Assembly (NCBI GenBank): GCA_963739395.1
Contig: CAVUAE010000001.1
Location: 948,137-1,012,136 of the forward strand
Source of the DNA: an uncultured Chloroflexia bacterium
Lineage (GTDB): Bacteria; Chloroflexota; Dehalococcoidia; Dehalococcoidales; RBG-16-60-22
DNA length: 64,000 nucleotides
Direction: 5' to 3'
Shown here: piece after piece, positions 60,641 to 63,423 of the stretch
Numbering within the stretch: position 1 is the first letter of the stretch
Layout of the letters: each line of letters opens with the position of its first letter
Translations under genes and position numbers: made by a program
Notes under the pieces: generated by a model
The model's database searches: none
The model's input: the letters and a program-made list of their open reading frames with translations, nothing else
Told to the model about the DNA's origin: nothing

Positions 60641-60973
60641 TTAATTACTCTGGTAATACCTTTGCCGACTGCGGCTGGGACGATTACCATTTTTTGATGC
60701 CGAAGGCCGCTGCATGTTCCTTTCGGAAAGAGGCAGTGCTTCAATAATGTTGACAAGCTGGTCTCTGACTATTTTGCCTTCTAATCCGGCGATGGCGGCC
60801 ATACCTGCCGATTTTGATGTCATTTCTACGAAGCCATAACCGTTGGTTTTACCGCTGCCGATGTACTTATCATTCATAATGATTACCGAGGTCACTTCAC
60901 CGAAAGCCGCAAATGCTTGACGAAGCTCGTCCTCGGTGGTTTCAAACGATAGATTACCTATGTAGATATTCAT
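60641..60973 (-). CDS. RRM RNA-binding protein (second copy)
   Basis: MNIYIGNLSF (RNP2) and GYGFVEM (RNP1). Confidence 0.85.
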   Translation of the reverse strand: MNIYIGNLSFETTEDELRQAFAAFGEVTSVIIMNDKYIGSGKTNGYGFVEMTSKSAGMAAIAGLEGKIVRDQLVNIIEALPLSERNMQRPSASKNGNRPSRSRQRYYQSN

Positions 60974-61062
60974 ATCGCCGCCTTTCAACAAGTCGTGCTA
61001 GCGTTACCGATTGGCACTGCTGCGTTGGCAATAATGCGCGCAGCTACCGGCACCCGAACTGA

Positions 61063-61434
61063 CTAATATCTTCGGTCTCTGCCGCCGCCCGACCTGCCGC
61101 CTCTGCCGCCGCCCGACCTGCCGCCGCCATAGCCACGATTGTTGTAGCCGCCGCCCCTTCTATCTCCAAAGGAACCGCCGCCGCGGTTATCGGGACGTGG
61201 ACGTGATTCATTAACCACAATCGTGCGTTCTTTCAATGACTTGCCGTTTAGTCCGGCGATAGCAGCTTCGGCTTCAGCCTTGGAGCTCATCTCCACGAAA
61301 GCGAAGCCTCGGGGCCGCCCGCTGATTTTATCGGAGGGAACAGCTACGGAATCCACCTTGCCGTAGGTGCCGAATTCCGCCGCCAGTTCGTCCTCGGTGA
61401 CTTCGTAAGAAAGATTGCCCACATAGATTTTCAT
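61063..61434 (-). CDS. RRM RNA-binding protein with Gly/Arg-rich tail
   Basis: MKIYVGNLSY, RGFAFVEM, RGG repeats. Start reset to ATG 61434 after GGAGG. Confidence 0.92.
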   Translation of the reverse strand: MKIYVGNLSYEVTEDELAAEFGTYGKVDSVAVPSDKISGRPRGFAFVEMSSKAEAEAAIAGLNGKSLKERTIVVNESRPRPDNRGGGSFGDRRGGGYNNRGYGGGRSGGGRGGRSGGGRDRRY

Positions 61435-61555
61435 GATTGCCCTCCTGAAACAGGCATTAATATTACGGGACTTAAAAAGTATAGAGATAAAGTGTAGCCG
61501 GGTCACATCCGGATGGATTGCCCTAAAACCAGACGTGACCCGGGATTTGATCAGT

Positions 61556-61843
61556 TTATCTAGCTGATCGCATTTGTCGGAAACAATCGCTGCAGTAAAC
61601 TGGTTTGTCGCCACGGGGCTGGAAAGGAACTTCAGTGGCTTTGCCACACTGGGCGCAAGTGGCGGGGAACATTTGCTTTGTGCCACCACCATACCGCTCG
61701 GTCTTCCGTGACTGACGGCATTCGGGACACCGTTTGGGTTCGTTAGTGTAGCCTTTGGTCTGGAAGAATTCCTGGTCCTCGGCGCTGTGGACGAAAGTAT
61801 TACCACAATCGACGCATGTGAGGGTTTTGTCCTGAAAACTCAT
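61556..61843 (-). CDS. Zinc-ribbon / CxxC-x17-CxxC domain protein (paralog of 29693)
   Basis: CVDCG...QEFF..KG..NEPKRCPEC; CAQC...PFQP...KPVYCSDC. Confidence 0.9.
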   Translation of the reverse strand: MSFQDKTLTCVDCGNTFVHSAEDQEFFQTKGYTNEPKRCPECRQSRKTERYGGGTKQMFPATCAQCGKATEVPFQPRGDKPVYCSDCFRQMRSAR

Positions 61844-61889
61844 GGATGACCTCCTCTCTTCAATTATTAGTTAGAGTTTTGGTCATCCA
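61843..61889 (-). promoter_or_regulatory. RBS/start-occluding leader hairpin (copy 2)
   Basis: TGGATGACC pairs with GGTCATCCA on the minus strand. Confidence 0.65.
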
Positions 61890-62003
61890 ACACTTAGAAA
61901 TCCGTTTTTGAGGCTTCTTAGAAGCGTGCAATAACCTAAACCTGAACTTATACTATATTATAACACAGCATGCAAGTGGTTGTATATAAAGGGTGTTCAC
62001 TGC

Positions 62004-62032
62004 TTGACATAATTATATTTCAATGGTATAAT
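62004..62032 (+). promoter_or_regulatory. Consensus sigma70 promoter with no downstream ORF
   Basis: TTGACA-N17-TATAAT, an exact consensus match. Confidence 0.85.
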
Positions 62033-62044
62033 AAGAATAATTAA

Positions 62045-62147
62045 GTCGCTACCCTGACTGGTGACGGCAGCATCTTTTTCCCTACGCTGGTTGCGTAGGG
62101 TGGGTTGGATGCCCGTAGGTTCTAATGACCTGCCAGAGTAGCGACCA
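62045..62147 (+). ncRNA. Candidate structured small RNA (unassigned family)
   Basis: 12-bp closing stem with one mismatch, GCATC/GATGC stem, 8-bp hairpin, T-arm-like hairpin, 3' CCA then T-run, directly behind a perfect promoter. Confidence 0.65.
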
Positions 62148-62177
62148 TTTTATTTACATTCAATCTCTCGTTATTTT

Positions 62178-62870
62178 TTAAGTCTTTCCATATTCATTAA
62201 ATTGGTCAATCAGTTTAAATAACCATTCTCTATCTTCTGGGGATAAAGATATAAGGTCAACATCTACGGATAAAAATAAAGTTCCGCCACTTTTTAATTG
62301 GATAGACTGAATATTACCTTTCGATTTGTTACCCTTAACGTTTGGGGGTGTTGTCTCATCGCTGCCGGAACTTGGAGATTCATCTTTCTTACTACGCCTC
62401 ATGGTTTTTTTTGCTTTTGCCCAGTGTACAGAACATTTCAATCCCGTATATTCACAGACCTCAAGGAAAAAACGAGTTACCCTCTCCAAAGTCCCACTCT
62501 CAACACCATACTGACGGAATAAGTCCTGAAGTTGTTGAAAAGTGGAATTACTTACACCCAGTTTAATAGCATCTTTGTAGCGTTCTTCTATAATTTCCCT
62601 TAAAACTGCCTTCCTGCTTTCACCTTTAGCATCGACTAAACGATGAAGACTTGGTTGGACTTTTCCCTTTTCGTCAATCAATCCTAGAAACTTAAAAGCA
62701 CCCAGTGTTTGACTCTGTGTACCGCCAGACCATGATGGCCATACAGACCGGTCAAGTGGGTCTGGTAGCCCCTGTTCTAATATCTCAACGGCACTGAGAA
62801 AAGTTTTAAAAGGAATATAGACAGGTGCTCTGGTTTGTTCTGCGTTGTTCCCATTTGTTTCCATTTCCAC
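62178..62870 (-). CDS. DUF5343 domain protein
   Basis: YIPFKTF...LPDPLDRSVW...SQTLGAFKFLGLIDEKG pattern. Confidence 0.7.
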   Translation of the reverse strand: MEMETNGNNAEQTRAPVYIPFKTFLSAVEILEQGLPDPLDRSVWPSWSGGTQSQTLGAFKFLGLIDEKGKVQPSLHRLVDAKGESRKAVLREIIEERYKDAIKLGVSNSTFQQLQDLFRQYGVESGTLERVTRFFLEVCEYTGLKCSVHWAKAKKTMRRSKKDESPSSGSDETTPPNVKGNKSKGNIQSIQLKSGGTLFLSVDVDLISLSPEDREWLFKLIDQFNEYGKT

Positions 62871-62900
62871 GTTCTCCTTTATTCTGGTTATTCTGGATAT

Positions 62901-62988
62901 ATTTTAAACTAGATTCTGGGAATTGTCAATAGATTTCCTAGTTGTTCCGCAGATTTATTTTGACACTACCCATGGGAACAACTAGAAT
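62901..62988. promoter_or_regulatory. Divergent promoter pair with 11-bp inverted repeat
   Basis: Minus: TTGACA(62929-62924)-N17-TAAAAT. Plus: TTGACA(62960-62965)-N17-TAGAAT. CTAGTTGTTCC-N26-GGAACAACTAG lies across the plus promoter. Confidence 0.7.
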
Positions 62989-63021
62989 TATATTATAAAT
63001 AGTAATGAATGAGGTGCAGAA

Positions 63022-63204
63022 ATGAAAGCTGGACAGATGATTAAAGTAAAGACATACGATGGAGAAGCTGTTGTAATACTAGTTGAAATGAATGATACTC
63101 ACGTAAATGTATGCAAAAAAGAGGAATTTGAAGCAGCAAAAAAAGAACGTCGCCCACCTATAATAGTCGGTTTTAGAAAAACTGAAGTAATCGGAGAGGT
63201 ATAA
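63022..63204 (+). CDS. Small hypothetical protein (60 aa)
   Basis: GAGGTG RBS, its own promoter, AT-rich. Confidence 0.6.
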   Translation: MKAGQMIKVKTYDGEAVVILVEMNDTHVNVCKKEEFEAAKKERRPPIIVGFRKTEVIGEV

Positions 63205-63423
63205 TTAGCTGGTACTAGCTTTTAGGTGATTTTCTCAATTTAGCTTCGCTCGTTGATTCTTGGACTACTCGAAAAGCTATCTGGTTTACATCATCGCCCA
63301 GCTTTCAATGCCGGATGAATTCAAACTGTACCACTACCGTTTTTTCTCCAAATCTTGCCTCCTTCACCCCTATATATTATAATTGTCTTGCCTCTATAAC
63401 ACGTACTTTCTAAAGAGTTATGT

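Follow-up and report, generated by a model that had tools for sequence, protein, structure and literature searches.

Our results show that a small structured RNA gene, lying in the window (the whole 64,000-nt stretch of DNA that was analysed, from an uncultured Chloroflexia bacterium), is carried by a subgroup of cargo-carrying transposons, probably of the IS1 family. Its structure, conservation, promoter signal, mobile context and overlap with neighbouring cargo genes are established by the comparisons described below. As to its function, we give an even chance to the proposal that it is a promoter-driven cis-antisense small RNA (sRNA) in a two-way terminator of these transposons. We propose to regard it as a transposon-borne regulatory RNA with a new fold, a new position and a new family, standing outside 6S, tRNA-like and SRP RNA, probably also outside Y RNA, and outside any Rfam family.

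The gene has most of the elements that an earlier note had read from this DNA (Table 1). The promoter is indeed TTGACA-N17-TATAAT, with the full score and, in addition, a TG extension, and the structure begins 7 nt past the -10, runs for about 105 nt and closes on a U-run. The closing stem with its one mismatch (C.A), the GCATC/GATGC pairing, the 8-bp hairpin with the UGGUU loop and the T-run are likewise all there. Both strands fold better than their shuffles (z -3.8 for the + strand and z -6.0 for the - strand), and no ORF of at least 30 aa was found within the RNA element. A micro-ORF of 10 codons (62109-62141, MPVGSNDLPE*, with its AUG 62109 at the conserved GGAUGCCC) was judged to be an accident of the conservation of the RNA sequence, since its AUG is buried in helix P2a, a consistent Shine-Dalgarno sequence is lacking and its length differs among homologues. 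The description of an ORF-less structured RNA gene with a strong promoter of its own therefore stands, promoter and structure being both conserved, and, judging from this promoter, the RNA would be abundant.

Table 1. Features of the RNA gene and of the insert that carries it (window coordinates, unless a locus is named).
Feature	Position	Strand	Remarks
Insert of ~1.35 kb: RNA gene, DUF5343, 60-aa ORF	61994..63338		Missing in sister genomes
Sigma-70 promoter of the RNA: TTGACA (62004-62009), 17 nt, TGgTATAAT (62027-62032)	62004..62032	+	Score 12/12, TG-extended -10
Predicted sRNA transcript	62040..62155	+	Start ~62039-62040, end in U-run 62148-62155; ends inferred from promoter and U-run
P1 5' strand	62045..62055	+	Partner 62135-62145; single C.A mismatch at 62053/62137
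Core GGUGACGG	62060..62067	+	(Near-)invariant in 14 sequences; GGUG with 62131-62134 = P1b; ACGG with CCGU 62113-62116 = P2a'
Long arm	62071..62111	+	P2a, CAUCU (62071-75) with GGAUG (62107-11); P2b, 62080-87 with 62093-100
UGGUU loop of the P2b hairpin (8-bp)	62088-92	+	
CCGUA (invariant), P3 hairpin (GGUU 62118-21, loop, GACC 62127-30), UGCC (P1b 3' strand)	62113..62134	+	
P1 3' strand	62135..62145	+	Then CA and UUUUAUUU
DUF5343 gene	62178..62870	-	Pfam PF17278, E 2.5e-6; stop codon 32 nt from P1 end
Back-to-back promoters, DUF5343 (-) and 60-aa ORF (+)	62901..62988		11/12 each
60-aa ORF divergent from DUF5343	63022..63204	+	
IS1-family terminal inverted repeat GGTAGTGGTACAGTTTGA	63321..63338	-	Sole one in window; 0 mismatches to consensus; 0.03 chance matches expected
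Operator-like motif sites in other loci	L193 166/1198/1265; L194 585/602/1587/1642; L150 642/708/2273; L191 ~3590, ~4600		

Homologues were collected with BLAST and covariance models, by a gapped pattern scan of metagenomes and by fetching contigs via their neighbouring proteins. This gave 14 distinct full-length homologues, at 14 distinct loci with covariance-model scores of 79-132 bits, plus two truncated copies, and the homologues and covariation for which the earlier note had called were thus at hand. A 14-mer scan of genome contigs returned chance matches only, and no homologue was found in viral contigs (two pattern scans) or in plasmid and phage collections (BLAST). When the three-way-junction structure was scored on the 14-sequence alignment, 96% of cells were paired, and double-sided changes were seen in 18 of the 36 pairs, as against 7.2 +/- 1.7 in shuffles (0/500) and at most 5 in slid-partner controls. 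The RNA structure is far beyond chance. The P1 sequence is wholly different between copies (for example CACCAUCGGCAUGG/CCAUGCCGAUGGUG in L139), with compensatory changes in 10 of its 12 pairs; in the long arm, six of the seven P2b pairs and one P2a pair covary, and P3 covaries too, reading GGUCG/CGACC in L139 and GGCCC/GGGCC in L141. The helices at the junction, UGGUG/CGCC, ACGG/CCGU and GGU/ACC, are invariant in sequence over the 14 copies, and the U.G at 62062/62132 is retained in 12 copies and is C-G in one. The transposase genes that adjoin the RNA share a DNA identity of only 65-75%.

The promoter is conserved together with the structure. In nine loci a sigma-70 promoter scoring 11-12/12 stands at a constant distance from the RNA, the end of the -10 being 6-8 nt before it, and the spacer sequences differ. 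This fixed distance despite differing spacers is our chief reason for taking the + strand to be transcribed, into an RNA that would consist of the structure alone. In the high-G+C copy L139 (~940-1048) the consensus promoter is missing; the ~110 nt upstream of the RNA hold GGTGGAACTCGAATCCCCAC, which resembles a fragment of a tRNA T-arm, and an IS1595-like transposase fragment is found further upstream.

Is this a housekeeping RNA of the host? The earlier note had taken it for a tRNA mimic (Y-RNA-like) or a minimal 6S RNA, with an island integrated beside it, and such a reading draws on the strong promoter and the compact fold, on the T-loop-like UUCUAAU and the 3' CCA of this copy, and on a genome without any RF00013 6S match. 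We now consider it extremely improbable, given the patchy distribution, the lack of matches to tRNA, 6S and Y RNA models, the failure of the tRNA-like details to be conserved and the position of the RNA inside an insert. Among 110 genomes from the same family, BLAST and covariance models detected the RNA in 3, and covariance models detected it in 1 of 401 genomes of a class sample and 1 of 401 of a phylum sample, the sole match being the window's own copy; with such a distribution, the RNA is not a housekeeping one. UUCUAAU and CCA are present as described, although in this copy only: the P3 loop is variable (CUAAU, UUAUU, UAAG, UUGC and others), and the bases after P1 are CA, UC, UU or UA. 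In place of the T-arm-like GTAGG/CCTGC pairing that had been drawn, the homologues back ACGG/CCGU and a short covarying hairpin, GGU(U)-loop-(G)ACC.

The searches with models of known RNAs agree with this. On the window, ARAGORN and RF00005 returned only two ordinary tRNAs, both elsewhere, and no cloverleaf at the RNA. The claim that the RNA is undescribed is sustained by Rfam 15, of which no model, RF00013 and its clan included, matched 61850-62350 at gathering score or at E<=10. RF00013 also had no match genome-wide (1.79-Mb genome G000, E<=1), in a comparison where the same model failed in 9 of 14 control genomes, so that this absence carries little weight. In its architecture 6S RNA is a rod of ~150-200 nt with a large central bubble, whereas the present RNA has ~105 nt and a three-way junction with one unpaired junction base. 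RF00169 did not match at the RNA locus, and the SRP RNA of this genome is encoded elsewhere (contig 2, 83117-83216, 71.5 bits). Similarly, Y RNA and YrlA had no Rfam match at the locus, and no Ro-like gene was found among the neighbouring genes. The present RNA has in common with 6S, tRNA-like RNAs and YrlA that it is small, abundant-looking, highly structured and noncoding; it differs in being accessory and mobile rather than housekeeping, and in having no model match.

The island had also been supposed to start past the 3' end of the RNA, as islands do at tRNA genes. In the sister genomes G008, G003 and G004, window position ~61993 is joined straight to ~63354, and the onset of the insert is at ~61994, 10 nt upstream of the -35. 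The promoter of the RNA thus lies within the insert, which starts before the RNA and not past it, and integration beside the RNA gives way to an RNA that is itself part of the inserted DNA. At its other end the insert finishes on the IS1-family terminal inverted repeat (Table 1). No transposase of this IS1 type was found in the window's genome, nor in G008. This single exact repeat, together with a genome that has no such transposase, makes the window copy a one-ended, transposase-less relic of an IS1-family cargo transposon. The relic is without transposase, basic protein and one end, and keeps the RNA with an intact consensus promoter, DUF5343 and the 60-aa ORF; its deletion endpoint lies ~10 nt upstream of the RNA's -35, with loss of the operator palindrome described below. 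For the G008 copy, no flanking inverted repeat could be identified. For this genome, a supposed housekeeping RNA becomes the marker of a decayed mobile element.

The gene next to the RNA is convergent, as had been stated, and codes for a DUF5343 protein, an arrangement shared with G008, L145, L150 and L167. Beside DUF5343, most of the loci fetched have a divergent ORF of 57-100 aa (L150, L164, L166, L167), and sequence likeness to the 60-aa ORF of the window was seen only for the L150 copy. A HicB/UPF0150-like gene occupies the place of the divergent ORF in G008 and L145. Directly upstream of the insert, at 60641-61843, are two RRM-domain genes and a treble-clef zinc-ribbon gene (zf_Tbcl plus zf_Tbcl_2), a context that is conserved in the sister genomes.

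Intact elements have the order inverted repeat, basic protein of ~90 aa (GRxGG...EIAKKAAxxRW), cargo of one or two genes, RNA on the opposite strand, transposase, optional further cargo and inverted repeat. Terminal repeats of 17-21 bp, GGTAGTG(G/T)(T/A)TCA(G/T)TTTGA, bound five elements of 2.0-4.8 kb (L145, L191, L192, L193 and L195), each with one perfect 8-bp target duplication (GTATCCCC, CTCAATCC, AAATTGTC, CACCTTTC and CGATAACG). In the longer contigs the RNA lies ~147 nt from the divergent gene of a transposase of 278-283 aa, whose best model is NF033558 IS1 (E 1e-14, with 54 bits, below the 100-bit cut-off), matches to PF03400 being weak; close relatives of this transposase bear the NCBI name 'IS1 family transposase'. 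Two close IS1 relatives with other cargo, sampled via their transposases (85% and 77% identical), do not have the RNA.

These elements also share an operator-like motif. The half-site ATGCTT(G)AGCG lies within the promoter spacers of the transposase and basic-protein genes, and a palindrome (CTTGA-N4-TCAAG or GCTTA-N4-TAAGC) directly precedes the RNA's -35, so that in intact elements the motif is common to the RNA, transposase and basic-protein promoters. The half-site variant (GCTTGAGC or GCTTAGC) changes jointly at all three sites within an element, the palindrome varying along with it. As the motif is also present in RNA-less relatives, it is probably bound by the basic protein or by the HTH of the transposase. 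Restriction-modification cargo stands right after the transposase gene, at times overlapping it (L193 128-4903; L199 1080-5966; L002/L167; L194), with examples such as an N6_N4 methylase with MvaI/BcnI and a SocA/Panacea-domain gene, a methylase with ThaI, and an MmeI-like type IIG enzyme; L194 has a NYN nuclease as cargo.

Without exception, the RNA faces the last cargo gene in convergent orientation, and the cargo proteins concerned are of two kinds. Loci with a winged-helix protein of ~160 aa have the RNA in 9 of 9 cases, one of them truncated. The AF2 model of this protein (pLDDT 73.5) shows a long N-terminal helix and a winged helix, the nearest PDB folds being MarR/PadR regulators, and the last ~10 codons of its gene (TT(V/M)AGx*) are encoded opposite P1/P3, with an overlap of ~30 nt in 8 loci. 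Among loci with DUF5343, the RNA is present in 5 of 8 and missing from three, and in this type the sRNA overlap would be with the 3' UTR. The DUF5343 model (pLDDT 78) had no significant PDB neighbour, and homology between the winged-helix cargo protein and DUF5343 was not found. Two copies of the RNA are truncated (L195 ~1700-1797 and L136 ~170-300), with the 3' half gone, including the 3' strand of P1; the genes beside them look intact, the winged-helix gene of L195 being still open with a changed C-terminus. Absence from three DUF5343 loci and from the two IS1 relatives means that the RNA is not obligatory beside DUF5343 and does not belong to the core of every element of the clade. The RNA is dispensable. 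A toxin-antitoxin role was considered and is unlikely, with a MarR/PadR-type winged helix as the constant partner and an RNA that is missing or truncated beside intact partner genes.

The two strands of the element seem to be under different constraints. On the + strand, the imperfect cells of P1 are A.C or C.A in 8 cases (20 with the three-pair extension) and U.U in one, with no G.U, a pattern that goes back to only about 5 independent substitution events; P1 is wobble-clean only as read on the - (cargo-sense) strand. The inner helices, by contrast, have 26 G.U and 5 A.C cells on the + strand. This wobble pattern of outer and inner helices implies selection on both strands, in which the outer stem would serve as the terminator of the cargo operon and the inner fold would belong to a + strand sRNA. 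P1 has 11-17 bp, with leaders such as AUAAAG, GUAAAG and AAGAAG pairing in register with CUUU-type tails, and the RNA is flanked by A-rich sequence 5' and U-rich sequence 3', the pattern of two-way terminators, with U-rich tails past P1 on both strands in most loci. In the equivalent place of an RNA-less relative, where a simple terminator was expected, the hairpin is weak (-6.9 kcal/mol, z -0.4). Bidirectional intrinsic terminators have the same A-rich tract, G+C-rich stem and U-rich tract on both strands between convergent units; here, however, the 'loop' is a conserved, covarying structure of 75 nt, and one strand has a dedicated promoter whose transcript would be the structure alone.

Could the - (cargo-sense) strand be the only functional one? 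The element would then be a 3'-UTR terminator, stabiliser or insulator, with a promoter acting through transcriptional interference and yielding a functionless product. The element does occupy precisely the gap that separates the cargo operon from the transposase promoter, mismatches are absent from P1 just on the - strand, and this strand folds better (z -6.0 as compared with -3.8). We nevertheless regard this possibility as unlikely, as the 26 G.U cells of the inner helices would turn into A.C mismatches on the - strand, the distance between promoter and structure is fixed, with a transcript that is exactly the structure, and a terminator has no need of an invariant core of 35 nt.

The same features bear on two readings that we consider less probable still. 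In the first, the RNA would be a riboswitch-like leader, sensing a ligand or signal, in which formation of P1 decides between termination and read-through of a long antisense transcript over the cargo. The three-way junction with its invariant junction-proximal nucleotides, and a P1 that doubles as terminator stem, would be in keeping with this, as would the 3' GCCA segment, which has two mutually exclusive registers, UGGUG or RRC. However, use of the opposite strand explains the alternative register equally well, a separate expression platform is absent and no Rfam aptamer matched. In the second reading, to which we assign a similarly small likelihood, the element acts as DNA and not as RNA, for example by forming a cruciform, by serving as a recombination site or by binding a protein as a palindrome in the transposon. 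It is an imperfect palindrome of ~100 bp within a mobile element, and its core sequence is conserved. Against this, the helices are nested with different centres, the local, one-sided hairpin P3 covaries, the wobble tolerance is strand-specific, and a conserved promoter and U-runs frame the element; in addition, the transposase is probably a DDE enzyme, a class acting on double-stranded ends.

We favour the cis-antisense proposal, which may work as follows. On the cargo- and transposase-sense strand, the long outer stem and its U-run would be the intrinsic terminator of the cargo operon, and the same terminator may also shield the transposase gene from read-through. On the opposite strand, the strong promoter would yield an sRNA that spans exactly the same structure. 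This sRNA would have full complementarity to the cargo mRNA at its 3' end and would most likely be a cis-antisense regulator of that mRNA, while the invariant core of the three-way junction and the CUGG-containing loops could serve for fast pairing or for binding of a protein partner. We infer transcription, termination, pairing and the regulatory effect from these sequence features. Pairing of the sRNA with the leaders of the transposase or basic-protein mRNAs gave no signal, duplex energies being no better than those of shuffled sequences; one start codon seemed to have a 9-bp match, which is not conserved.

As functional analogues, RNA-OUT of IS10 and the antisense RNAs with 3' overlap at type I toxin-antitoxin loci come nearest. 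Like the present RNA, RNA-OUT (IS10/Tn10) lies within an insertion sequence, has a strong promoter and is a stable stem-loop RNA antisense to a transcript of the same element. RNA-OUT, however, overlaps the 5' end of the transposase mRNA, whereas the RNA described here diverges from the transposase gene, its overlap being with the cargo operon at the 3' end; it also has a three-way junction with an invariant core, shares no sequence or model similarity with RNA-OUT and belongs to the IS1 family, not to IS4. In type I toxin-antitoxin loci, convergent antisense RNAs that overlap at the 3' end are known from RatA/txpA and SR4/bsrG of Bacillus subtilis. In both cases sRNA and mRNA are convergent, their 3' ends overlap and a two-way terminator region is shared. 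The partner here is a MarR/PadR-like winged-helix protein or DUF5343 and not a small hydrophobic toxin, and the RNA can be lost or truncated with the partner gene intact.

Structured non-coding RNAs beside a transposase gene inside an insertion sequence are also seen as IS110 bridge RNA, IS1111 seekRNA and TnpB/IscB omega RNA, the seekRNA being one example of a transposon-encoded guide RNA (PMC11187229). The enzyme here is probably an IS1-type DDE transposase, in contrast to the DEDD recombinases or RNA-guided nucleases of those systems. A guide role was considered and is unlikely, as the five 8-bp target duplications are unrelated and the variable loops match neither targets nor ends. No RNA component is described for this IS1 family in Rfam 15 or in the literature searched, and literature searches on DUF5343, ISMhu11 and IS1 with non-coding RNA found nothing relevant.

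A cis-antisense role leaves ~35 invariant nucleotides of the core unexplained, since a cis-antisense pair stays complementary under any mutation. For this reason a protein-binding role remains the main rival: the RNA may be a trans-acting subunit of a small RNP that controls transposition or a cargo function, for example defence, the antisense overlap being incidental. Candidate partners are the winged-helix cargo protein, the ~90-aa basic protein, the transposase or a host factor. We hold this to be possible, at clearly less than an even chance. It would account for junction helices that are invariant in 14 copies next to transposase genes of such low identity and for the presence of the RNA with the winged-helix protein in 9 of 9 loci, and nearby cargo is often of defence type (restriction-modification, NYN, Panacea), with a weak match of DUF5343 to PADLOC PDC-M34A. 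On the other hand, the RNA is intact without transposase (in the window and in G008) and without basic protein (in the window), its partners are unrelated, the winged-helix protein and DUF5343 having no homology, and an RNA-binding domain was not detected in any partner. In a bolder form, which we find rather doubtful, IS1-type cargo transposons would carry an undescribed RNA-protein module that has this RNA as a subunit; an element-encoded protein would read the invariant junction of the RNA, and the module would license or limit transposition or provide an RNA-dependent defence or addiction function. If this were true, it would mean that a family of DDE transposons took a dedicated structured RNA into its service, one acting neither as a guide nor simply as an antisense RNA.

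What does this RNA mean for the elements that carry it? Cargo-carrying IS1-type elements are very common in uncultured bacteria, often with restriction-modification and other defence-type genes aboard, and more than 8000 clusters of IS1-type transposases pass E<=1e-20. With its strong covariation, a consensus promoter tied to the operator of the element, and opposite strand constraints on the outer and inner helices, the RNA is a clean, small test case of the ways in which a DNA transposon uses RNA to insulate its genes and to tune them, and of how one stretch of DNA can undergo selection as RNA on both strands.
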